Assembly (NCBI GenBank): GCA_002688415.1
Contig: NZCX01000021.1
Coordinates: forward strand, 6,660-70,659
Direction of reading: 5' to 3'
DNA length: 64,000 nt
From: Candidatus Pacearchaeota archaeon
GTDB taxonomy: Archaea > Nanobdellota > Nanobdellia > Pacearchaeales > GW2011-AR1
Part shown: in pieces, positions 5,274-21,496 of the stretch
Position numbering within the stretch: the stretch's first letter is position 1
How the letters are laid out: the number at the start of each line of letters is the position of its first letter
Program-made: the position numbers and the translations under genes
Notes under the pieces: generated by a model
Seen by the model: only the letters and a program-made list of their open reading frames with translations
Told to the model about the DNA's origin: nothing
Databases searched by the model: none

Positions 5274-8200
5274 CTATTTGACTTCTATCTTCTCGGCCTT
5301 AACAACTCTAACGTTATTTGCGACAAATGCATCTCCAAACTCCTTGTTCTCAACAAACTTTCCGCTTAAAAGAACAGCGTCTCCTTCGTCAACCTTTTGC
5401 CCAATTAGGTGTTCCTCAAAATCTCTAGGAAAAACTGTGACCTTGCATTCCCCACTTCTATCTGAAATATCCATAAACGCCATATCTGCACCGCTCTTGG
5501 TTACTATTCTTGTGTACCTTTTCACGACACCAAAGACTTCTGCCTCAACATCGTGCTTAAGATTATTAAGACTTATGGCCCCGTTGCCATAGCTTCCAAA
5601 CGTATCCATTATATGTCCAGAAATGCAAACCCCCAATAACTCCTCTTCCAGACTTAACTTTTCACGAAGAGACATTGGTGGAAGATCAGAATATTCAATT
5701 TTGTTAGCAACTCCTCCGAATAATGTCATCTGCTTTTCTTTACCATCTGTTTTCTGAACATTAATATAAACTTCTAAAAGGCTGGCCCTATTAATCCCCA
5801 ACTCATCAAAACATCCAACCGAGATTAAACTATGGCACACTCTTTTGTTAACTTTGGACAAGTCAACACGATTAACAAAGTCTTGATAGTCTTTATACGG
5901 CCTACTGGCCAAAATGCTCTTTACAGCCTCACCGCCAACATTTTTGATTCCGGACAGACCGACACGGATTACTTTCTTTTTGGATCCATCTGAATTTTCA
6001 ACTTCAACAACACTAAATGACTCTTGGGAAGTATTGATATCTGGTGTCAAAATTTCAATACCTTCCTTTCTAGCTGCTTCCAGGTAAAATGCTAACTTCT
6101 CTGGATTGCCAACGGAAGATGAAATTGTCGCAGCATAAAATTCTACTGGGAAATATTTCTTTAGATAAGCAGTTCTATAACTAATTAATGCGTAGGCTGC
6201 AGCATGACTCTTATTGAAAGAGTATTCTGCGAATTTTACAATATCATCCCACAGCTGAGCAACTTTTTTTGGATCCATACCAGAATGCTCAACGCACCCC
6301 TCTTTAAATTGTGCCTCCATCTTCTCCATAAGATCCATTTTTTTCTTCCCAATGGCTTTTCTTAAAACATCAGAATCACCTCTAGAAAACCCTGCTAACG
6401 CCCTTGATAGCTGCATAACTTGTTCCTGATAAACCATTATGCCATATGTAGGTGCCAAAATCTTTTCTGCGTTCGGATGCGGATAAACAGGTTTGTCTCT
6501 ACCATGCTTTCGGTTCCCATAGACTTCCAAATACTGCATTGGCCCTGGGCGATAAAGAGCAACAATAGCGATAATATCATCAAAACACGTCGGCTGTACA
6601 GACCTCAATGTCTTCTTCATCCCTTCGCTTTCAATTTGAAAAACCCCATTCGTCTCACCGTGACGAAGCATCTTGTAAACATTGTCATCATCCATTGGGA
6701 TACCTTCAAGCCACTTTCCATCCTCCCCGATCGCGTCTAAAACCTTCTTAATAATGTTTAACGTTTCAAGTCCTAAAAAGTCAAATTTAACCAGTCCGTA
6801 TGTTTCTATATCGGGGCCTTCAACCTGAGTAATAACATCACCCTGTCGCCCATAGACAGGAAGATAATGAGAAATAGCCTCCCGCCCCCAAACTACCCCA
6901 CAGGCATGGACCCCCTTATGGCGCACACACCCCTCTAATCTTTTTGCAATATCAAAAATCTGCTCGTGTTTTTTTGCCAACTTCTGCAACTCTTCAGCAT
7001 CGGGAGTAAAATTACCGCCATCGGTTTTAGCATTTAAAGATTTTTCAATCGTTTTCTCACTGACCAATTTTGTAATAGCATTGGCCTCATCAAATGGAAT
7101 TCTAAAAACTCTCATGACATCTTTTAAGACCGCCTTGGCAGACATCGTACCAAACGTACCAATCATAGCAATTTTGTCTTCGCCGTATTTTTTCCGAACA
7201 TAATCAAGGACAATGTCCTTGTCTCCGAAATCTATATCAAAATCTGGCAAACTAATCCTGTCGGGATTCAGAAATCTTTCAAAAAGTAACCCCAACTTCA
7301 GAGGATCCAACTGTGTTATTCCTAAGCTATAGGCAACAATAGACCCTGCACCACTACCACGACCAGGGCCGACTTGACAAAACTTTTTAGCAGCCTGAAT
7401 GAAATCCGCAACAATCAAGAAATACGCCTCAAAGCCCATCTTCCCAATAACTCCCAATTCGAAATTCATTCTATCAATCGCCTCTTTATAATTATCTTCA
7501 TCGCCATAAATTCTATCAACACCATCTTTACACCACTTATACAAGTGCTCCTTATGGCTCATGCCATCAGGGGAATCAAAGTGTGGAAAAATCGGATCAC
7601 CCATCTCTAGTTCAACATTACACCTCTTGGCAACCTCCGAAGAAGCTTCAACATACTCTGGATTGCTTGGGAAAAGATTCAGAACCTCCTCCTCGCTCAT
7701 AACATGATACCCCTCTCCATCAAACCGAAAACGATTTGGATCGCTCATGTCTCCATTGGTTTGAATGGAAAGCATAACCTCATGAGCATAAGCATCGTCT
7801 GATTTCAAAAAGTGCGAATCTGTTGTAGCAACAATTTTTACGTCATATTCCTTTGACATTCTTTGATAAAACTCCATTACTTTTTTCTCTTCCGGAATAC
7901 TGTGGTTTTGAACTTCAAAGTAAAAATCCTCCTTTCCAAATATATCTAAATATTCTTCAATTAGCTTTTTTGCTGCTGGCTCGTTTCCTTCAATAACGGA
8001 CTGGGCAATATCATTAGCTATGCAAGCACTCATGCAAATCAGGCCCTTGGAATATTTTCTCAAAAGAGCCTTATCTACTCTGGGACGATAATAAAACCCT
8101 TCATTATTAGAAATAGAAACCAATTTTATAAGATTCTTATATCCCTCTAGGTCCTTTGCTAACAAGATAAGATGGAAATCTCTTTTGGTTCTCACTCTAG

Positions 8201-8438
8201 ACGTATGATCATCGCAGATATATGGTTCAAATCCAAAAATCAATTTAACCCCCTCTTTCTTGGCTAGATTGTACTTCTTTATCATAGCCCCCATGTTTCC
8301 ATGTTCTGTAATGGCAACCGTATCCATCCCGAGTTCTTTAAGCCGTGGGAACAGTTCTTTTATCTTAGTAGCACCATCAAGAAGACTGTATTCTGTGTGT
8401 AAATGCAAATGCGTAAATCCCATAAATAAAAAGAGCAT
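5274..8438 (-). CDS. dnaE: Bacterial-type DNA polymerase III alpha subunit (DnaE, family C), compact form
   Basis: N-terminal PHP domain (HLHLHTEYSLLDGA, ITEHGNMGA). Palm motifs with the catalytic Asp pair (LPDFDIDFGDKD) and third Asp (GLVKFDFLGLETL). GPGRGSGAGSIVAYSLGIT thumb motif, HhH and C-terminal OB fold. 1054 aa with no tau-binding tail. Confidence 0.85.
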   Translation of the reverse strand: MLFLFMGFTHLHLHTEYSLLDGATKIKELFPRLKELGMDTVAITEHGNMGAMIKKYNLAKKEGVKLIFGFEPYICDDHTSRVRTKRDFHLILLAKDLEGYKNLIKLVSISNNEGFYYRPRVDKALLRKYSKGLICMSACIANDIAQSVIEGNEPAAKKLIEEYLDIFGKEDFYFEVQNHSIPEEKKVMEFYQRMSKEYDVKIVATTDSHFLKSDDAYAHEVMLSIQTNGDMSDPNRFRFDGEGYHVMSEEEVLNLFPSNPEYVEASSEVAKRCNVELEMGDPIFPHFDSPDGMSHKEHLYKWCKDGVDRIYGDEDNYKEAIDRMNFELGVIGKMGFEAYFLIVADFIQAAKKFCQVGPGRGSGAGSIVAYSLGITQLDPLKLGLLFERFLNPDRISLPDFDIDFGDKDIVLDYVRKKYGEDKIAMIGTFGTMSAKAVLKDVMRVFRIPFDEANAITKLVSEKTIEKSLNAKTDGGNFTPDAEELQKLAKKHEQIFDIAKRLEGCVRHKGVHACGVVWGREAISHYLPVYGRQGDVITQVEGPDIETYGLVKFDFLGLETLNIIKKVLDAIGEDGKWLEGIPMDDDNVYKMLRHGETNGVFQIESEGMKKTLRSVQPTCFDDIIAIVALYRPGPMQYLEVYGNRKHGRDKPVYPHPNAEKILAPTYGIMVYQEQVMQLSRALAGFSRGDSDVLRKAIGKKKMDLMEKMEAQFKEGCVEHSGMDPKKVAQLWDDIVKFAEYSFNKSHAAAYALISYRTAYLKKYFPVEFYAATISSSVGNPEKLAFYLEAARKEGIEILTPDINTSQESFSVVEVENSDGSKKKVIRVGLSGIKNVGGEAVKSILASRPYKDYQDFVNRVDLSKVNKRVCHSLISVGCFDELGINRASLLEVYINVQKTDGKEKQMTLFGGVANKIEYSDLPPMSLREKLSLEEELLGVCISGHIMDTFGSYGNGAISLNNLKHDVEAEVFGVVKRYTRIVTKSGADMAFMDISDRSGECKVTVFPRDFEEHLIGQKVDEGDAVLLSGKFVENKEFGDAFVANNVRVVKAEKIEVK

Positions 8439-8542: not shown

Positions 8543-11500
8543 CTACCCAACAAACTCATCAAGCTCAACCTGTTTTTCTTCTGTCTCGCCAAAAATAGAC
8601 TCTATGTATTCCCTAGCTAAGTCAATACCCTCTTTTGTATATGGAGGGATATTGTATTTATTCGCCAAATTTGTCGCTAATTCTAAATATTTCTTAATTG
8701 ACCCCTCACTTATTGTGAAAATAATCTTTCCGCCACATGAACATTCTCCAGCCAATGGAGGTCTTCTAAATTTTTTATTACAATTACTACATCTAAATTT
8801 TTGTCTTGAAAACTTACGCAAATTTCCCCTAATATCGCGAATAAAATGTCTTTCTATCATAAGTCTAGCAACATCAACTGTATCTACTGCCCTGATCTTT
8901 TCAACTAACTCCATCTGCTTTTCAACTTTTTCCTTCATGGTTGGAAGAACCTTATACGACCCATTAACAAAGCCTGCGTTGAAATTATCTGTACAATGCG
9001 TAAACCCTGCTCCCACAAAAGGATTTACCCCATTATCTAGTCTAGTTTTAACTGTTTCAATATTGCATTTACTAGAAGAAGCCTCTTGCTCTGCCAATCG
9101 ATAAACACTCAATGGATAACCATTACATGTTTCAAAATTCAAAATTTGGTCATCAACCTCTCCTGCATCAATTCGCGCATTTAAAACAAGGGGAGCATCC
9201 TGCGTACCTCCTCTATGACTTGGCAAAAATTTACGAGAAAAGTTGATCAAAACATCCATAAGCATCATAACTGCTGCTTCATCCCCGTCACAATCTCTCC
9301 TGATTGCAGCATGCATATATGGAGATGCCACAATTCCCTGTACTTCACAAAATCCTATAATTCTACCAATAACCCCCGCGCAATTATGCGGGGCCATACA
9401 CACTATTAATTGGCCAATCAAATCAGACTTATTTTTCAGATTATAATAACGTGGTAGTTTATACAACCTCTCCAATTCCTCATCAATAAATTCTGCGATA
9501 TTAAAGAATACGTCATCAGCCTTCTCGTCGTCAGAAACCGAACAGGATGGAAGGATTATATCATGAGGCCTCAACTCTAAAATCTGTTCTATGCTTGTCA
9601 AAGGATTTCCTTCGATATCATTAATATAACCAAGCTCTTTAAGCTTCTCAAGGCTAACACCTATTTCCTTAGGCTTAAAATGAGTCAGTGGAACCTCTGT
9701 TCCATCATAACGAATTGTACCATCCTTATTTACTGCCAAATTAAACTTGGCACGCAATATTGCCTTTGATAAGTGTTCAAAATCATTGCCTTTGTTGGTT
9801 AGCGCCCTCACCCCTTTAACCAATGGAGGAATTTCATAATCCTTATACCCCAACAGTCCCGTAGCAGAATCAAAATACTTCTTTATTTCAACATTATGTT
9901 TAGTAAATCGATTCCTCCTCTCATGATTTTCGCAAGGAAACTTCATGGTCTCTTTACATTCTATACAATAATAAAACCTCTCCGTCGGTTTTCCACATTG
10001 CTCACATAAAGAATAGATGGTCTCATTTCCACATTCGCATCTATAAGTAGGCCAATTAGACCTTACAAATCCCATAACACAAGCTTCCTGAACGCTTCTT
10101 AGCCTCCCTCCCTGATCAGAAACCGGAAACAATCCGTTTGGGCTCCCTGGCAGCTTACGAAGCTTAGCCTTTTCAGGCCTACCCATCCTAGAACCAATAA
10201 AGCTCCCAGCCTTGTCTTTAATCTCAAAGCGACACAGAGAATTAATTATTTTCAACACCTCCACTGCTTTATTCTTACTTTTAATAATTTTCAAAACTCT
10301 CTCTCCGAATGTTCCTCCAGAATTAGGATCTATGCCTAAATTGAAAAGAAACCCAGAAGAATCCTCTTCTATTATAATGTTGTCAAAAACAACAGAGTGC
10401 TCAACCCCCAGTAACTCTAAGGCTCTTTTGCCTTCCTTAAATTTCTCGCGAACACTTTCGCTCCATGGCAAAATCAATTTTCCACCAGCAACCTTTTCAA
10501 GCACACCATTCTGAAGCCAGTCCATTAACCAATAAAAATCTTCTACTCCAATCTGTGTCCAGTAAAAAATAAATTTTGGATGGATAGGAATTTCATATTT
10601 TTCACTAATTTTCATAGCACATTCAAAATTAACTGGCTTATTAACAATCTCTTCATATTTTTCACCAGACTTAGATAATTTATCTTCTAGCTCAAGTCTC
10701 CACCACTCTTCAACATACCCGGGCTTTAGTAGGTCAAAATTTCTATCAATAACGTCACCAAGAGGAAACAAAATATCCCCAAGATAAATTATTTCATCAA
10801 TATCCTCGTATAGTTTTTTAGCAGTCTCAAAATCCTGCAATTTTTTAACAGAGCCATCCCGAAGCTTAACGATTGGGCCATCAATTGAGTCGCATGAAGT
10901 TATAATACACCCCTTGGTTGGCTTTTCAATTTTTAATTGAGTTCCATTAGACAAAAATCCTCCACTTACTCCCATCGTGGCTGGATGAAGAGAAGTCGCA
11001 CTAAAACCAGAAGTTCGGCCCCTACCGTACCTAAGCCTAAAGCCGCCACTCCTGCCTGGGTGGCCATAAACTGGACGTCCTGCAACCAGATCTTTAATAT
11101 AGGTTGCCACAACCTCCCCCGCTCCTCCTTCTCTCTTTTTGTGCAATTCAAGATAATCATGTAAAAAATCCCAACCAGTACAAACTAAACCATTTTTCTT
11201 CGGGCTACTCAAACGACCAAGTGCTTTTTCCGCCTTCTGGGCCAATCCTTCGCTAAAAATTAAACACATTCCACCTCTAATAAAATTTGTTTCAACTCTT
11301 TCTAGATCCTTATGATTAGAAACCTCTCTTTTGTCCGTTGGGTCACCGTCAATTTGGAAGGGCAATCTTTCTGCTAAAAAAACCATCTCGTCTTCAGTGG
11401 GAAAATATGCTAGATTTGCAACTCTTTCATGATAATCGACATTTTCTGTTACATATCGCCCAACCTCTTCCTCTGTAGGATCATATTTTGCATAACCAAA

Positions 11501-12031
11501 ATGTTCACGCAAATAATCAATTAGCATTAAAACCAAACATGTAGCCGTGGTACCAGCTGAACGAATTGGTCCACTAAATTTAGCGATAAAATAATCTTTT
11601 CCCTCTTTTGTTTTGCCAAGACTAAGCCCCGTATAGCCCTCTGTCGGAGAAGCAACAACCCCCAAGGTCAAATACGAAAATCCAACACGTATTCCACAAT
11701 CAATCGCTTTAAGTTGGTCCTCAAACTTACAAAATTTTTCTTCAGAAATTTCACGCGCAATAGCAAATGCAACAGTGGTATCAAGCCTCCCGTGCTTGTT
11801 TTCAAGTTCTAAAATTCTTTTACTAATCTTGTCAACTGGAATATCTGAATAAATAGTAGATATTAAATTAACCGCTTTTTCTGCCATATTAACCGCTAGA
11901 GGAATTTCAACTTTTCTAGCCGGATCAAATCCTTTGGAACGAGCCATATTGGCAACTTCATATTCTTTAAGAACTGATTTCTCCAGATTAAGAAAATAAC
12001 CCTCTGGATTCCATACGGGGTTATTGCTCAT
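8543..12031 (-). CDS. dp2: DNA polymerase D (PolD) large catalytic subunit DP2
   Basis: 1162 aa. Cys-cluster zinc fingers (CECGNETIYSLCEQCGKP...CIECKE; C-terminal CSNCNKKF...CSCGG) and conserved DP2 blocks. Overlaps DP1 by 4 nt. Confidence 0.9.
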   Translation of the reverse strand: MSNNPVWNPEGYFLNLEKSVLKEYEVANMARSKGFDPARKVEIPLAVNMAEKAVNLISTIYSDIPVDKISKRILELENKHGRLDTTVAFAIAREISEEKFCKFEDQLKAIDCGIRVGFSYLTLGVVASPTEGYTGLSLGKTKEGKDYFIAKFSGPIRSAGTTATCLVLMLIDYLREHFGYAKYDPTEEEVGRYVTENVDYHERVANLAYFPTEDEMVFLAERLPFQIDGDPTDKREVSNHKDLERVETNFIRGGMCLIFSEGLAQKAEKALGRLSSPKKNGLVCTGWDFLHDYLELHKKREGGAGEVVATYIKDLVAGRPVYGHPGRSGGFRLRYGRGRTSGFSATSLHPATMGVSGGFLSNGTQLKIEKPTKGCIITSCDSIDGPIVKLRDGSVKKLQDFETAKKLYEDIDEIIYLGDILFPLGDVIDRNFDLLKPGYVEEWWRLELEDKLSKSGEKYEEIVNKPVNFECAMKISEKYEIPIHPKFIFYWTQIGVEDFYWLMDWLQNGVLEKVAGGKLILPWSESVREKFKEGKRALELLGVEHSVVFDNIIIEEDSSGFLFNLGIDPNSGGTFGERVLKIIKSKNKAVEVLKIINSLCRFEIKDKAGSFIGSRMGRPEKAKLRKLPGSPNGLFPVSDQGGRLRSVQEACVMGFVRSNWPTYRCECGNETIYSLCEQCGKPTERFYYCIECKETMKFPCENHERRNRFTKHNVEIKKYFDSATGLLGYKDYEIPPLVKGVRALTNKGNDFEHLSKAILRAKFNLAVNKDGTIRYDGTEVPLTHFKPKEIGVSLEKLKELGYINDIEGNPLTSIEQILELRPHDIILPSCSVSDDEKADDVFFNIAEFIDEELERLYKLPRYYNLKNKSDLIGQLIVCMAPHNCAGVIGRIIGFCEVQGIVASPYMHAAIRRDCDGDEAAVMMLMDVLINFSRKFLPSHRGGTQDAPLVLNARIDAGEVDDQILNFETCNGYPLSVYRLAEQEASSSKCNIETVKTRLDNGVNPFVGAGFTHCTDNFNAGFVNGSYKVLPTMKEKVEKQMELVEKIRAVDTVDVARLMIERHFIRDIRGNLRKFSRQKFRCSNCNKKFRRPPLAGECSCGGKIIFTISEGSIKKYLELATNLANKYNIPPYTKEGIDLAREYIESIFGETEEKQVELDEFVG

Positions 12032-13629
12032 CCTAGGTCCTCCGAATCGTCCCGATTCTTACTGCCATTCTCTTCCTTAATTCCTTCTTCTGTATTACCA
12101 AAATCCAATATCCTTATTTCTCTTGTTTTGGGATTAAAAATAGGTACTTTACATGGATCTGGATTGTTCCCTGCTTTCTCTTCAAATGGCGTGATAGATT
12201 GCCAACACGATCCTGAAATAAGAAGTATATTATTTACCGTAGAAAACTCTGCTCTATGTTGATCTCCAGTAAACAAAATATCTGGGATATTGTCAATAAC
12301 AAGGCTATCTTCTTCGCATGGTATATAATCTGCAAGACCGTGGAATGGCGCTAAATGACGCCTTTTTAGCATTTCTCTAACAACTTTGGTCGGAGCATCA
12401 TGCTTATATTTTACTCTTATTTCAGGAAGTTCATTTATAAAATAATTTATACTGGCACCGTGATACATCAAAACACTAAATTCGGCTACTTCAACAAGTG
12501 AGGGATTTGGAACTAAGTGTAAATTTTCTAAATCATACAGGCCGGGTGCAAATTTTTTATTAATTATTGGCTGGGGTTCCCCAACCCAAACTGCATCATG
12601 CTGGCCTGGACACATTATAATTTGAACATCTCGCCTAATAAGGCTAAGTAGTTCTTCAAGTTTTTTATACTGCCCGGCAGTGGTTTTAATATTCAAATAT
12701 TTTTCCTGGCCTGGACCATGATTCACGCCATCAACTGCATCTCCTGCAATAAATAAGTATTTAATTTTTTTAGCAAGTTCTTTTTGGTCACCAGAACCCT
12801 CTTCCCCATTTAGCCATTTTATAAATTTTAAAAAATTCTCTTCAAGAAACATCTTGCTCCCGATATGCATATCACTGATGAATGCAATCAAATCCTCTTC
12901 ATTTGAATACTTTTTGCAACCGATTGATGCATCGGGATAAATAACACTATTCGCAAATAAAATATCTCCTCCTCCATTTACATTGATAGAGATAATATCA
13001 TCCTCTAAAATTGATTTACCAACGCTAAAAAGCTCTGTCTTTGAACTGTTAATTAGAACCTTTGATGCTCCAGTTAAATCTTCTACCTCTAAAAGAATAT
13101 TTTTATTTTTTGTTATCTTTTTGTCTAGAACCGCAACAATAATAGTATAATTTCCCTTGCTGTATCCAATTTTTCTAATTGACGTTAAATTCTCCAGATT
13201 TTTTTCCTCTAAAATATTCCTAATTTTCTCGTATCTACTCTTAAAATGACGAGTAAACTCCCTTACTGTAATTTTTCTCTTAGTAAAAGCTGGAGAAGAC
13301 AATACATTAACATTTTTTACTTTGGGTTTTAACATTGTGTTATTAACAAAGGCTTCATCACCCAAGGGTGCAATCTCATTATAGAGAATTTTTGAGAGAA
13401 TTTTTGAAACTGAATTTTTATTATTAGACTTTAACAGGTTGGTCCTAATTTCATCGATATTTTTAATGAAAATATTTTTATTTAATATTTTATTACTTAA
13501 TCCTGAATTAGAAATCGCCTTTACTAATTTCAAAATATTTTCATCCGAAAGATGATTCATCAGGTCACGAAATTCTAAATCTAGTAAAATTCCATTTCTC
13601 ATACATTCTTTTAATAAAATATCAACCAT
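12028..13629 (-). CDS. dp1: DNA polymerase D small (exonuclease) subunit DP1
   Basis: 533 aa. Calcineurin-like phosphoesterase motifs (DMHIGS, GDAVDG, GQHD, GDQHRA). Translationally coupled to DP2. Confidence 0.85.
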   Translation of the reverse strand: MVDILLKECMRNGILLDLEFRDLMNHLSDENILKLVKAISNSGLSNKILNKNIFIKNIDEIRTNLLKSNNKNSVSKILSKILYNEIAPLGDEAFVNNTMLKPKVKNVNVLSSPAFTKRKITVREFTRHFKSRYEKIRNILEEKNLENLTSIRKIGYSKGNYTIIVAVLDKKITKNKNILLEVEDLTGASKVLINSSKTELFSVGKSILEDDIISINVNGGGDILFANSVIYPDASIGCKKYSNEEDLIAFISDMHIGSKMFLEENFLKFIKWLNGEEGSGDQKELAKKIKYLFIAGDAVDGVNHGPGQEKYLNIKTTAGQYKKLEELLSLIRRDVQIIMCPGQHDAVWVGEPQPIINKKFAPGLYDLENLHLVPNPSLVEVAEFSVLMYHGASINYFINELPEIRVKYKHDAPTKVVREMLKRRHLAPFHGLADYIPCEEDSLVIDNIPDILFTGDQHRAEFSTVNNILLISGSCWQSITPFEEKAGNNPDPCKVPIFNPKTREIRILDFGNTEEGIKEENGSKNRDDSEDLG

Positions 13630-13746: not shown

Positions 13747-14961
13747 TTAAAGACCTAGATTCTCTGCCAACATATCTTCAATTTTTTCAAGAAGCGTGTT
13801 TGATATACTAAGTCTTATTTCTCTGGTTCTACCATGTCGACCCTTGCTAATAACTTTTGCATTAATTATACCAAGCATATCGATATCCGCTAATATATCA
13901 CTAATCCTACGTTGAGTCAGGCTATCGGTTTTTGTTCTTATACAAACATCCTGATAAAGATTATAGACATCACCTGTAAAGAATTTATCTATTTTATGAG
14001 TTTGTTGTTGTCTGGTTAGTTGAACAATTGTATATAATACAAGTTGATGTTGTTTTGGAATAGTTTCCACTATATCCAAGATTTTATCCTTTTCTATTTT
14101 ATGGTTTGCAAGATCTATATAGTCCTCCTCAACCTTCTCTTTAGATTCTCTCTCTGAGAGCTCTCCAGCGACTCTTAATAAATCAAGGGCTCTCCTTGCA
14201 TCACCATGTTCTCTAGCCGCATAAGCGGCGCATTTAGCTGTAACACCAGGGTTGATGACGTTCTCGTGAAAAGCTAACTTGCATCTCTCGTTTAAGATAT
14301 CTTGAAGCTGAATAGCATTATATGGGGGGAAAACAAATTCTTCTTCGCCAAGACTACTTCTAACTCTCGGGTCAACATGGTCTAAAAAGGTTACATCATT
14401 ACTAATTCCGATTAGAGAAATTTGTGCATTCACCAACTCTTGATTTAAACGGGTCATAGAATATAGAAAGGTATCACTCATTTTTTTGATTGCTTGGTCT
14501 ATTTCATCAAAAATAAAGACAATTAATTGCTTTTTACTATCCACAATTTCAATAAATTTTCTCCAAACCTTATCTGTTGGAAGACCTGTTGCAGGAACAC
14601 TTCCTCCTAATTTTTCAATTAATGCTGCCAAAATTCTATATTCGGTATCGGCCACTTTTCTAAGTTTACAATTTATATACTCAAATCTAAGATCTACCTC
14701 TAACTGTTCTGCTTTTTTACTTAATTCATCTTTTACATACAAAACACTCAATGTTTTACCTGTTCCTGTTTTTCCATAAACAAACAAATTACTAGGACGC
14801 TCTTCCCTTAAGCTGGATGCTAATATCCCTGCAATAGACTTAATTTGTTCATCTCTGTGAGGAATACTTTCTGGCGTGTATCGAGCTTGCAAAACAGACT
14901 TATCCTTAAAAACACTATTGTTAACAGCACTCTCAAAAATTTCATTCAACTCAACTACCAT
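13747..14961 (-). CDS. cdc6: Orc1/Cdc6 replication initiator
   Basis: 404 aa. Walker A GKTGTGKT, Walker B IFDEID and a C-terminal winged helix. Sits immediately beside an ORB-containing AT-rich region. Confidence 0.9.
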   Translation of the reverse strand: MVVELNEIFESAVNNSVFKDKSVLQARYTPESIPHRDEQIKSIAGILASSLREERPSNLFVYGKTGTGKTLSVLYVKDELSKKAEQLEVDLRFEYINCKLRKVADTEYRILAALIEKLGGSVPATGLPTDKVWRKFIEIVDSKKQLIVFIFDEIDQAIKKMSDTFLYSMTRLNQELVNAQISLIGISNDVTFLDHVDPRVRSSLGEEEFVFPPYNAIQLQDILNERCKLAFHENVINPGVTAKCAAYAAREHGDARRALDLLRVAGELSERESKEKVEEDYIDLANHKIEKDKILDIVETIPKQHQLVLYTIVQLTRQQQTHKIDKFFTGDVYNLYQDVCIRTKTDSLTQRRISDILADIDMLGIINAKVISKGRHGRTREIRLSISNTLLEKIEDMLAENLGL

Positions 14962-15027
14962 TTTTATACAAAAAATAAACCCTTAGAGTATTTAAATATT
15001 ACTACATTGGAAGCTATGGTTTCATTG

Positions 15028-15050
15028 TCCTCTATTTCCTATGGAGATTA
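15028..15050 (-). repeat. Inverted ORB-like box
   Basis: Revcomp TAATCTCCATAGGAAATAGAGGA contains TCCAnnGGAAA. It is in inverted orientation to the 15236 box, across the AT-rich tract. Confidence 0.5.
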
Positions 15051-15235
15051 AGTTAATTTTACACCTACACCATTATTTCCTATGCAACTTACCTCGATAA
15101 AACTTAAAAATTTCAAATATTCTTTATATATACTATAATATACTATAATATAATATATATAATATATAATATAAAACTTTATAAATGAAATACTTAAAAT
15201 TTCAAATGGAAAAACACCTATTTCTTTTTAAAAAA

Positions 15236-15257
15236 CCTCCAAAGGAAACAAGGGGGT
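15236..15257 (+). repeat. Origin recognition box (ORB) with G-string
   Basis: CCTCCAAAGGAAACAAGGGGGT matches the archaeal ORB core TCCAnnGGAAAC followed by a G-run. Confidence 0.65.
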
Positions 15258-15371
15258 CAGAGATTACCTCAATAAAACCAACCAATCTAATGAAAATATT
15301 TTCAACATCTCTCGTTAATATATATACCAAATCACACAAACATTTATAAATATCTTCAATCAAATTAACCT

Positions 15372-15626
15372 ATGGATAAAAAACCGTTCAAATCTCTCCT
15401 CGGGAAACAGGTTGTAACAAAAGAAGGTAAAAAACTAGGAATTGTAAAGGATATAACGTTTGAAACAAGAACAGGGGAGTTAATCCATGTTGTGTTAAAG
15501 GATCTTACAACCTATACGGCAAACCTATCGCTGGAAAGAACATCAAACAAAGAGGCATTAGTCCCATATAATTCTGTAATAGCAGTAGGAGATTTTGTAG
15601 TAGTCTCAGAAGAAGACTTATTATAA
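15372..15626 (+). CDS. PRC-barrel domain protein
   Basis: 84 aa. LLGKQVVTKEGKKLGIVKDITFETRTGELIHVVL is a typical PRC-barrel signature. Confidence 0.6.
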   Translation: MDKKPFKSLLGKQVVTKEGKKLGIVKDITFETRTGELIHVVLKDLTTYTANLSLERTSNKEALVPYNSVIAVGDFVVVSEEDLL

Positions 15627-17185: not shown

Positions 17186-17244
17186 CCATATTCAAAAACA
17201 TACATTCTAGAATATATAATATTATAAACTCTTTTTTTGTCAAT

Positions 17245-17907
17245 ATGTTTATGGACCTAATAAAAGAGGCTTTTAGCAGAATCAAGAAAGATATTTATTC
17301 CATCCAGGTAGAACTAGCAACCTTAAGACAAGAAGTACAAAATATTGCTAAAAACCAAGTCCCAACTACACATCAAATAGTTCACCGATCGGAGACCCAA
17401 CAGACAAACAGACAACCCCATCCAACAGACACTCCAACACAAAATATAGCCGCAGAGCCTCTTAAAATACAAAATATACCATTTTCCATAGGAAATGGTG
17501 GGGTTCCAACAGACAAACAAACAGACAAACAAACAGACAAACTGGGAAAAAATAGGTTGTTTCATAAGCAAAACACCTTTGATGAGGCGGAAGAGGTCAG
17601 ACACTCACTTGATAGCTTGAAAGAAGAAATAAGGCGCAAATTCCACTCACTGACGCCACAAGAGATGCTTGTTTTTACAACGATCTATAGCTTTCAAGAC
17701 CAGAACAGGCAGATAACCTATAAATCTATAGCTCAGCATTTAACACTCAGTGAGTCGTCAATAAGAGACTATACCAACCGCCTCATTTTAAAAGAAGTAC
17801 CAATTATAAAAGAAAAGGTTAATAATAAGCAGATTCTGCTCTCAATCTCCCCAAGCTTGCGAAAAAACATATCATTATCGACGATAATTGCATTAAGAGA
17901 TGCTTAA
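17245..17907 (+). CDS. Coiled-coil / TDKQ low-complexity linker / C-terminal wHTH protein (putative transcription regulator)
   Basis: 220 aa. N-terminal heptad-like helix, (QTDK)n linker encoded by (cagacaaacaaa)n, and a C-terminal wHTH-like block (FTTIYSFQDQNRQITYKSIAQHLTLSESSIRDYTNRLILKEV). Confidence 0.5.
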   Translation: MFMDLIKEAFSRIKKDIYSIQVELATLRQEVQNIAKNQVPTTHQIVHRSETQQTNRQPHPTDTPTQNIAAEPLKIQNIPFSIGNGGVPTDKQTDKQTDKLGKNRLFHKQNTFDEAEEVRHSLDSLKEEIRRKFHSLTPQEMLVFTTIYSFQDQNRQITYKSIAQHLTLSESSIRDYTNRLILKEVPIIKEKVNNKQILLSISPSLRKNISLSTIIALRDA

Positions 17908-19736: not shown

Positions 19737-20222
19737 GTGATAAAGGAGTGTGACAACTGCAAGCAGGAAAAAGACCATCATGCCAAAGGGCTTTGCTATA
19801 GTTGTTACAAGAAGCTATATTTCAAGCCAAAAATCTTAACCTGCAAGCGATGTAAAAGAAAACTTGCAATACATGCTAAGGGATTATGCGCTGGTTGTTA
19901 CAACTACACATTTCACCAAGACAAAAACAAGGCATATCAACAGCGGAAAAAGAACAAAATTAGCATAAAAACATACCAAAAAACAACTGAAAAGTGTGTA
20001 ATCTGTGGTTTTGACAAGGTAGTGGACATTCATCATCTCGACGCCAACAAGAAGAATAATGCAGAAAGCAACCTAATAGGCCTTTGCCCGAATCACCACA
20101 GGATGATTAACAACTATAAATACAAGTTTGAAGTGTTTGCTGAACTTGCAAAGCTAGGATACAGGCTCCCAATCAGTGAAAAAGTAGATTATCATTCACT
20201 ATCTAGCCAAAAAGCACAATAG
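19737..20222 (+). CDS. Zinc-ribbon repeat protein with C-terminal HNH endonuclease domain
   Basis: Two CxxC...HAKGLC..CY zinc-ribbon repeats, then the HNH motif CVICGFDKVVDIHHLDANKKNNAESNLIGLCPNHHRMI. Confidence 0.7.
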   Translation: MIKECDNCKQEKDHHAKGLCYSCYKKLYFKPKILTCKRCKRKLAIHAKGLCAGCYNYTFHQDKNKAYQQRKKNKISIKTYQKTTEKCVICGFDKVVDIHHLDANKKNNAESNLIGLCPNHHRMINNYKYKFEVFAELAKLGYRLPISEKVDYHSLSSQKAQ

Positions 20223-20662: not shown

Positions 20663-21496
20663 GTGAAGATGGATAAAGGCCAATTTTTAGAGATTATTGA
20701 AACAGAATTGTCAATTTCTAAGCACTCACCATACACAATTAGGAATTACCTAGACGCCAATGCTAAGCTATTAGACTTTATACAAAAGGATCCTGAAAAT
20801 ATAACGTCTGAAGACGTAAAGACCTACATGGTAAAAAACCTCCAAGATTCCAAGGCAAGTTCTGTAATCCTTTTTTTGGCCGCAATCAAGTTTGCTTATA
20901 CCCTAGCTGTCAAGAGAGATATCACAATTTCAATAAAACGTCCAAAAAGGGAAAAAATATTGCCGACAGTTCTATCTAAACGAGAGGTAAAACTTCTCCT
21001 TAATGCGATTCCAAATCAAAAGTCCAAACTAATTCTATCAATAATTTACGCTTGTGGGATGAGGGTGTCTGAATTAACAAACCTAAGGATTAAGGATCTA
21101 AACTTCAATGAAAATATAGGACACATAAAACAATCAAAAGGAAAAAAAGACAGAATTTTCAATATACCCTCATTTTTGGAAGAAGATCTTCAGAGTCAAA
21201 CAAAACGACAAAAAGAACTCGGGATGGAATTCTTGTTTACGGGGCCAAAAGGTAAGCTTTCAACAAGGAACATCCAAAAGATAGTCAAAAAAGCTGCACA
21301 AAAGGCTAATCTCTCAGACGAAGTTCATACACACACTTTGCGTCATTCATTTGCAACACATTTATTAGAAAATGAAGTAGACATTAGAAAAATACAGAAA
21401 CTTTTAGGGCACAGTTCAATATCTACAACCGAAATTTATACACATCTTTCCACGCAGGAGCTAAAAAAGATTAAATCTCCAATAGATAGCTTATAA
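20663..21496 (+). CDS. xerA: Tyrosine site-specific recombinase, XerA/XerC/XerD-like
   Basis: 277 aa. Catalytic box HTLRHSFATHLLENEVDIRKIQKLLGHSSISTTEIYTHL (HxxR...H...Y) and an N-terminal SAM-like core-binding domain. Confidence 0.85.
   Translation: MKMDKGQFLEIIETELSISKHSPYTIRNYLDANAKLLDFIQKDPENITSEDVKTYMVKNLQDSKASSVILFLAAIKFAYTLAVKRDITISIKRPKREKILPTVLSKREVKLLLNAIPNQKSKLILSIIYACGMRVSELTNLRIKDLNFNENIGHIKQSKGKKDRIFNIPSFLEEDLQSQTKRQKELGMEFLFTGPKGKLSTRNIQKIVKKAAQKANLSDEVHTHTLRHSFATHLLENEVDIRKIQKLLGHSSISTTEIYTHLSTQELKKIKSPIDSL

Follow-up and report, generated by a model that had tools for sequence, protein, structure and literature searches.

Sequence anatomy of a probable oriC1-type replication origin upstream of orc1/cdc6 in a Candidatus Pacearchaeota archaeon

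The stretch of DNA analysed here (the window) comprises 64,000 nucleotides (64 kb) of contig NZCX01000021.1 of a Candidatus Pacearchaeota archaeon (DPANN/Nanobdellota). The element in question is a non-coding gap of 410 bp (14962-15371), which separates the divergent genes orc1/cdc6 (minus strand) and a PRC-barrel protein gene (plus strand). An earlier reading of the same sequence (the original prediction) had described a 410-bp non-coding region directly 5' of orc1/cdc6, and the gap coordinates were borne out from the sequence and its open reading frames (ORFs). The gap carries origin recognition boxes (ORBs) in inverted orientation around an AT-rich tract and, judged from its sequence, is very probably an oriC1-type chromosomal origin at which replication starts.

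Boxes and unwinding element in the gap

Archaeal origins consist of an AT-rich region flanked by ORBs and adjoin an initiator gene (reviews PMC4010727, PMC5333045). Boxes were located with two matrices trained on relatives only (22-25 Pacearchaeota/Woesearchaeota loci, window excluded), with which ~128,000 window positions were scanned. The distal-class matrix represents boxes upstream of orc1 in 22 relatives with 63-80% identical Orc1 (consensus CTTTCCATAAGAAATCATAGGGTCAC); the PROX matrix was derived from those boxes of the relatives which lie closest to orc1. The boxes and the unwinding element of the gap are the following:

15002-15024, plus strand: weak ORB-like string CTACATTGGAAGCTATGGTTTCA, fifth-best of the window with PROX, of uncertain significance
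15024-15046, minus strand: proximal ORB-like box CTCCATAGGAAATAGAGGACAAT, dyad core with a poor G-string
15065-15087, minus strand: orc1-side ORB TTGCATAGGAAATAATGGTGTAG, the strongest box and window-top with PROX, in direct repeat (D3) with the proximal box
15097-15197: candidate AT-rich duplex unwinding element (DUE), located by duplex stability; core 15124-15184, pure A/T run 15144-15176
15143-15187, minus strand: conserved element at the distal DUE edge, in orc1 sense CATTTATAAAGTTTTATATTATATATTATATATATTATATTATAG, containing the near-palindrome TATAAA-N2-TTTATA
15235-15260, plus strand: distal ORB ACCTCCAAAGGAAACAAGGGGGTCAG, dyad core and G-string, the latter directed away from the unwinding element; window-top with the distal-class matrix

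Ranked with the distal-class matrix, the best positions of the window were 15235-15260(+) (24.5 bits), 17482-17507(+) (20.8 bits) and 15064-15089(-) (8.2 bits). The five best with PROX were 15065-15087(-) (26.9 bits), 15237-15259(+) (26.0 bits), 17484-17506(+) (21.4 bits), 15024-15046(-) (15.1 bits) and 15002-15024(+) (13.9 bits). Four of these five (ranks 1, 2, 4 and 5) lie inside the gap, and the best of the 126,990 other positions scored 11.5 bits. Among 2000 dinucleotide shuffles of the 410 bp, 0.1% reached 15 bits or more and none reached 21 bits or more. The box at 15024-15046 scores -1.3 with the distal-class matrix because its G-string is missing. A second ORB cluster was not found in the 64 kb. 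The box consensus in the clade reads (T/C)TCCA-nnn-GAAA(T/C)-nnn(n)-GG(G/T)G. As regards the defining features of an oriC1-type origin, at least two ORBs with dyad core (TTCC...GAA) and G-string are represented by 15235-15260, 15065-15087 and 15024-15046, and the ORBs are inverted around the AT-rich element, lying on opposite strands on its two sides with the G-strings outward.

The original prediction had named three boxes. The ORB CCTCCAAAGGAAACAAGGGGGT at 15236-15257 on the plus strand is in place and coincides with the distal box, at the scores given above with either matrix. The inverted box TCTCCATAGGAAATAGAGGA, given as the reverse complement within 15028-15050, is also in place (15.1 bits at 15024-15046), but the main partner of the plus strand ORB is 15065-15087. 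That strongest box was absent from the earlier reading. The mini-ORB TTCAAATGGAAAAAC at 15201-15216 did not hold up: the string is in place (15201-15215) but scores below 0 with both matrices, and is better seen as overlapping the second copy of a 12-bp direct repeat, AAAATTTCAAAT. Regarding the AT tract, the description as an almost pure A/T tract of ~55 bp at 15125-15177 agrees with the count (51 of 53 positions A/T), the duplex being weaker here than anywhere else in the window.

Duplex stability in the 64 kb reaches its minimum in this tract at all three lengths considered, 40, 60 and 100 bp (z = 5.0, 5.3 and 5.4, respectively), and no pure A/T run of the window is longer than 15144-15176. 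Arrays of TA, ATATA and ATATATA were detected at 15125-15173 (TRF). For the element at the distal DUE edge, situated ~45-55 bp away from the distal ORB, anchored comparison across 18 relatives gave the consensus TTTaTAAataTtTATaTtatata.TatATAt (also written TTTATAAATATTTATATTATATATTATATAT); the element is present as well in an independent locus (L029, see below). An accessory factor may bind there, as at the ucm of Sulfolobus. The degree of conservation (TTTATAAA-N2-TTTATATTATATATTATATAT) exceeds what melting alone would need. Among the origin-adjacent genes no UBP-like protein was found by sequence.

Several short repeats accompany these features. The exact 12-bp direct repeat AAAATTTCAAAT (15107-15118 and 15196-15207) brackets the AT tract, and each copy of a second direct repeat (family D4, 93% identity) adjoins one of the two strong ORBs:

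15089-15103, plus strand: direct repeat TTACCTC(G/A)ATAAAAC, copy 1
15264-15278, plus strand: direct repeat copy 2, TTACCTCAATAAAAC

A string TT(A)TCGAGG is kept in relatives between the middle and proximal ORBs. No Rfam family matched the gap and no tRNA was found in it. No conserved ORF spans the distal box in relatives; a small ORF across the distal ORB of the related locus L030 (54 aa, 7935-8099, ENA assembly) was rejected as coding because its frame, strand and length are not conserved in relatives.

Related genomes, initiator protein and competing explanations

The comparison covered 25 related loci, labelled Pacearchaeota, Woesearchaeota or Nanoarchaeota. A protein encoded near the gap has a 100%-identical entry annotated from a Candidatus Pacearchaeota MAG, and the contig is represented in the TARA/ENA assembly ERZ909154 (run ERR594345); labels and entry place the organism among the DPANN archaea. 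In 23 relatives (Orc1 63-80% identical) both strands were scanned over the 700 bp upstream of orc1 for the polarity of the boxes. The least stable 60-mer of the ~13-kb locus was located upstream of orc1 in 22 of the 23. Boxes beyond this 60-mer were on the minus strand (opposite orc1) in 19 of 19 cases and those on the orc1 side were on the orc1 strand (+) in 39 of 39, so that dyad cores are turned towards the unwinding element and G-strings away from it. Matches of at least 15 bits over 288.6 kb of the relatives' DNA numbered 83, of which 57 fell in the 700 bp preceding orc1 and a further 18 corresponded to the intragenic site described below. Locus L029, which is independent, more distant and outside the training set, shows DP2, orc1, a gap of 425 bp and then the PRC-barrel gene, and its gap repeats the pattern of proximal box, AT tract and distal box (43.1 bits). 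The arrangement is conserved in 22 of the 23 relatives and in L029.

The initiator protein belongs to the Orc1-1 class. It scored 412.6 bits with the NCBIfam ORC1-type model TIGR02928, above the cut-off, and 485.5 bits with the best equivalog model, NF001625, slightly under the cut-off of 501 bits. Its best matches in the PDB were Cdc6-1/Orc1-1 of S. solfataricus (2QBY_A, 6e-104) and ORC1 of A. pernix (2V1U, 5e-90), the two initiators whose crystal structures include ORB DNA; in the alignment with both, the wing (GRHGRTREI), the recognition helix (TQRRISDI) and the initiator-specific motif (TGL) are conserved. A search with phmmer yielded no paralogue in the window, in which 13747-14961 is the only Orc1. 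In complete Nanobdellota genomes Orc1 has been reported as a single-copy core gene (preprint 10.64898/2026.05.13.725050).

Every sequence-level feature which defines an oriC1-type archaeal origin is present in the gap, the boxes are statistically specific to it, and order and polarity are kept in ~23 related genomes. The canonical archaeal oriC1 architecture postulated in the original prediction thus finds support in the Orc1-1 class neighbour, the inverted ORBs around the least stable duplex and the conservation. Since the anatomy matches that of characterised oriC1-type origins, we infer binding of Orc1 to the boxes and recruitment of MCM to 15097-15197; the following sequence of events, including melting and autoregulation, is modelled on the Sulfolobus, Aeropyrum, Pyrococcus and Haloarcula origins. 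Orc1/Cdc6 monomers would bind 15235-15260 (+) and 15065-15087 (-), and more weakly 15024-15046 (-), with the winged helix on the dyad core (T/C)TCCAnnnGAAA facing the AT tract and the initiator-specific motif of the AAA+ domain on the outward G-string. The two oppositely oriented complexes would bend the DNA, reduce its twist and bring MCM to the ~100-bp element 15097-15197, which would then melt, with bidirectional replication to follow. The boxes nearest orc1 probably also allow Orc1 to repress or tune its own promoter, because they are positioned ~30-75 bp 5' of its TATA-like box.

The genes around the gap and the two TATA-like boxes within it, which are putative promoter elements by their sequence and position, are the following:

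5274-8438, minus strand: DNA polymerase III alpha, bacterial-type DnaE (NCBIfam PRK05673, 1132 bits, cut-off 1002)
8543-12031, minus strand: PolD large subunit DP2 (Pfam PolC_DP2), co-directional with orc1
12028-13629, minus strand: PolD small subunit DP1 (Pfam DNA_pol_E_B), co-directional with orc1
13747-14961, minus strand: orc1/cdc6, 404 aa, Orc1-1 class initiator (Pfam Cdc6_C, Cdc6_lid, AAA)
14990-14999, minus strand: TATA-like box ATTTAAAT of orc1, ~33 nt before the start codon ATG; relatives keep tatgaaagTTTAAATAg in the same place
15343-15352, plus strand: TATA-like box of the PRC-barrel gene, TTTATAAATA; relatives with the same neighbour keep attttataaatgtttgtgt
15372-15626, plus strand: PRC-barrel protein gene, 84 aa (Pfam PRC, 7.6e-12; PRC-barrel proteins 8QZO, 4.5e-9, and 8ONW in the PDB)

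On the minus strand orc1, DP1, DP2 and DnaE follow each other in the same orientation, with DnaE directly downstream of DP2; the position of DnaE beside PolD was dropped as a new observation, being already published for Pacearchaeota (PMC8204110). The PRC-barrel gene, transcribed away from orc1, keeps this place in many relatives and is the same neighbour in L029 and L030.

A number of observations weigh against the interpretation as an origin. Without correction, cumulative GC skew is lowest near 30 kb, a minimum which was discounted because gene orientation flips there. A skew switch, one of the checks suggested with the original prediction, failed to appear at 15.15 kb within the window once coding strand was controlled. 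In the regression of GC skew at third codon positions (GC3 skew) in the window, the coefficient for the side of 15.15 kb was -0.008, compared with 0.139 for the coding strand, and the corresponding AT skew (AT3 skew) of minus strand genes is alike on both sides of this position. The best GC3-skew breakpoint, at 51-57 kb with a non-monotonic pattern, is due to a few genes of unusual codon usage. A skew switch counts as supportive of an origin but does not occur at all archaeal origins. Skew within the 64 kb is uninformative, neither supporting nor refuting an origin. Regarding the boxes, the bare 11-mer core TCCANNGGAAA shows no enrichment, with 3 matches window-wide vs. 1.56 expected, and relatives' composite middle box (see below) is absent from the window, where its best score is -2.3 bits. 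Finally, the chromosome may have further origins outside the window.

In the absence of enrichment of the bare core, counting of exact cores (TCCANNGGAAA, 0-1 mismatch) was dropped as a test and the motif was taken from the relatives by matrix. A search for the exact core in the relatives' upstream regions gave few matches, since the consensus of the clade, TTCCAnnnGAAA, varies between A and G, and was also given up in favour of matrices. The composite middle box, ATTTCtTTTGGAGaGGAAATgAAGGGGT, is located ~120-250 bp upstream of orc1 in most relatives (L001-L024), and combines a mini-ORB on one strand with an overlapping half-ORB and G-string on the other; the window carries two simple boxes in its place. 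As a separate observation on strand composition, plus strand AT3 skew is positive for genes of both strands over ~1.2-46 kb (~+0.1 for minus strand genes, +0.3 to +0.6 for plus strand genes) and ~0 beyond 46-52 kb, an asymmetry which runs over ~1.2-46 kb without a switch at the origin.

Four other explanations were weighed. The one which survives best, unlikely as it is, holds that the boxes are only Orc1 operators in a divergent promoter region, serving orc1 and perhaps the PRC-barrel gene, and that no replication starts there. It draws on the position of the proximal boxes, 30-75 bp upstream of the orc1 TATA-like box, on the missing skew switch, and on the purely regulatory role which Orc1 paralogues can play (Orc1-2; PMC9738581). 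A promoter, however, has no need of the most unstable 100 bp of the window between oppositely oriented boxes, nor would it require that this layout, with its strand polarity, be preserved in 22 of 23 relatives. As the only copy, and an initiator of the Orc1-1 class, the protein must have an origin to act on somewhere; the layout is common to all mapped oriC1 origins (PMC4010727), and autoregulation is compatible with origin function, not exclusive of it.

Only slightly more doubtful is a second possibility, that the gap is a true origin but dormant, or neither the sole nor the main one, the chromosome firing mainly elsewhere. Multiple and dormant origins are known in Archaea (PMC4595724, PMC3607249), and the lack of a skew signal at the gap would fit. 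Against this stand the single-copy Orc1 of Nanobdellota genomes, the usual linkage of origin and initiator (PMC4010727), the small genome size (Pacearchaeales median ~0.74 Mb, preprint 10.64898/2026.05.13.725050) and the absence from the 64 kb of any further Orc1 or ORB cluster.

It is highly improbable that an integrated plasmid or virus supplied this origin together with its own orc1, in place of the ancestral chromosomal one. Archaeal origin-initiator pairs can stem from captured elements (PMC4010727), and an HNH-endonuclease-like ORF (19737-20222, plus strand) and a tyrosine recombinase (20663-21496, plus strand) lie ~4-6 kb from the origin. But orc1 stands in a conserved core context common to at least 25 genomes (PolD DP1/DP2, ribosomal protein operons), the best matches of its product are oriC1-type Orc1-1 proteins, and the recombinase scores as archaeal XerA (NF040815, 225 bits, cut-off 220), a chromosome-resolution enzyme. 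A XerA-type recombinase occupies the same relative position in L029 and L030. Mere chance, i.e., an AT-rich intergenic spacer with ORB-like strings, could appeal to the unenriched bare core and to the commonness of AT-rich intergenic DNA at 35% G+C, but is effectively refuted by the shuffles (21 bits or more never in 2000), by box scores not matched elsewhere in the window apart from the intragenic box, and by conservation and polarity across relatives. The interpretation as an oriC1-type chromosomal origin is accordingly preferred.

An outlying box in a MarR-like gene

A solitary ORB, second-best of the window with the distal-class matrix and third-best with PROX, lies ~2.3 kb from the unwinding element, within the coding sequence of a gene for a MarR-like regulator. 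The relevant features are the following:

17245-17907, plus strand: DPANN MarR-like regulator gene, with weak Pfam HTH_36/DnaD_N matches
17482-17507, plus strand: outlying ORB TTTTCCATAGGAAATGGTGGGGTTCC (canonical ORB TTCCATAGGAAATGGTGGGGT), in frame in the ORF 17245-17907, where it encodes FSIGNGGVP

The box was found in the orthologous gene of 18 relatives and of L029. The gene is divergent from orc1 and located 1.6-3.7 kb away from it in most relatives, and has no orc1 within 7 kb in at least one homologue. Its family has at least 1379 homologues, none of them characterised, and the peptide S(I/T)GNxGVPTD(K/R)QT occurs in 114 of the 120 best homologues. The AlphaFold 2 model shows a helix at residues 2-37, low confidence (pLDDT <55) at residues 40-110 and a winged helix-turn-helix domain at 111-219. 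The motif residues 81-86 (pLDDT <50) are part of a linker of ~70 residues, predicted to be disordered and coded by A/C-rich sequence. Foldseek matched the protein to MarR, MepR and AbfR.

The outlying ORB is held at the nucleotide level. In 14 orthologues the codons of the motif are Ser TCC (14/14), Gly GGA (12/12), Gly GGG (14/14), Pro CCA (14/14) and Thr ACA (14/14), in a window where Ser is encoded by TCC in just 10% of cases and Gly by GGG in 23%. Conserved residues with four- or six-fold degenerate codons elsewhere in the gene use 2-5 codons each (Fisher p = 2e-5), and the amino acids in the motif vary exactly at the degenerate positions of the ORB consensus. As a control, a second ORB-like string arising from the peptide TPQEM(M/L)VF of the winged-helix domain in two relatives (L009, -2154 from orc1; L018, -3059) was recognised as a coding by-product, because its codons vary among orthologues.

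No partner box was found near the outlying ORB, and the nearest unusually AT-rich stretch is the upstream region of the gene (17188-17228, ~250 bp off, z = 3.1). Directly 3' of the ORB a perfect tandem repeat of 12 bp x 2.9, AACAGACAAACA, occupies 17508-17542 (plus strand) and encodes TDKQ repeats. Relatives show a run of A and C only in the equivalent place, of (GACA)n, (CAAA)n or (CA)n type, in which composition is kept and amino acids are not, and assembly gaps occur at this run in three of them (L004, L023, L025).

Two ideas concerning the gene and its box were set aside. A role of the protein as an initiator accessory of WhiP/Cdt1 or UBP type was rejected: matches in Pfam, NCBIfam and PHROGs were weak and of generic helix-turn-helix type, the PDB profile search gave nothing significant, and Foldseek found only the MarR family. 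An explanation by RNA was likewise rejected for both the gap and the intragenic ORB, with no Rfam match at either and a short UUUCC/GGAAA hairpin without compensatory changes.

We tentatively suggest that the origin system of the clade includes a dual-coded element, the canonical solitary ORB in the linker of a conserved MarR-like regulator gene, a proposal we regard as possible rather than probable. If Orc1 binds the outlying ORB, initiator occupancy could be coupled to expression of the regulator, the box acting as roadblock or operator; alternatively, it could serve as a titration site like datA or oriC2D, or as a looping site for the origin. It may also share its place with a peptide motif. 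The DUE-edge element could likewise bind an accessory factor, of ucm/UBP type.

Significance and comparison with characterised origins

Pacearchaeota and other Nanobdellota are uncultivated, ultra-small and little-studied archaea. The literature searched contained no description of ORBs or origin anatomy for these lineages. Complete genomes of Nanobdellota are rotated to ORC1 by convention in a preprint whose text contains neither 'ORB' nor 'GC skew' (10.64898/2026.05.13.725050); for one clade this convention gains a sequence basis in the form of a box consensus, box polarity and a conserved unwinding element. The locus can serve as an anchor for estimates of replication rates from metagenomes by peak-to-trough ratio, and the boxes provide concrete oligonucleotides for Orc1 binding. 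The origin itself is well supported and ordinary, i.e., of the canonical oriC1 type that a specialist would expect. Mildly surprising are the ORB kept in coding sequence and the sequence-conserved DUE edge, which point to origin-associated factors or regulation not described for DPANN archaea.

Among the closest characterised systems are the origins of Sulfolobus/Saccharolobus and A. pernix. In Sulfolobus oriC1, ORB2 and ORB3 are inverted around the DUE, each bound by one Orc1-1 monomer with defined polarity, and both are needed for firing (PMC12141716). As in Sulfolobus/Saccharolobus oriC1 (ORB3-DUE-ORB2) and A. pernix ori1, the origin of the window lies directly upstream of a gene of the Orc1-1 class, and ORBs with dyad core and G-string are inverted around an AT-rich DUE of ~100-150 bp. 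The sequence-conserved element in the DUE may correspond to the ucm of the Sulfolobus DUE (PMC12141716), though no UBP-like neighbour was found by sequence here. Differences from Sulfolobus and A. pernix are the box consensus, which is the clade's own, and the presence of two tandem boxes on the orc1 side.

In Haloarcula oriC1, G-strings at the outer ends of inverted ORBs are essential, and the AAA+ domain recognises the G-string (PMC3936714). The inverted ORBs of the window resemble oriC1 of Haloarcula hispanica in having the G-strings at their outer ends, and differ from halophile origins in lacking the extended G-string of halophile type. That the outlying ORB might act outside origin function has a precedent in oriC2D of H. 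hispanica, an ORB-rich region which exerts negative control of an origin by initiator titration, like datA (PMC3936714). It comprises 11 intergenic ORBs, whereas a single intragenic ORB is present in the MarR-like gene.

Regarding the Thermococcales, core motifs of the Pyrococcus ORB were named 'TTCC' and 'GAA', and Cdc6 of Pyrococcus binds in vivo to a cluster of ORBs located within dp1 (PMC1904270). The gene order oriC-cdc6-dp1-dp2 is shared with Pyrococcus and other Thermococcales. Within dp1 of the window neither the distal-class nor the PROX matrix gave an ORB-like match above background. Common to both systems is an ORB outside the intergenic origin, in coding sequence a few kb away and conserved in related genomes; unlike the cluster in dp1 of the Thermococcales, that of the window is one solitary box, situated on the other side of the origin in the MarR-like gene.

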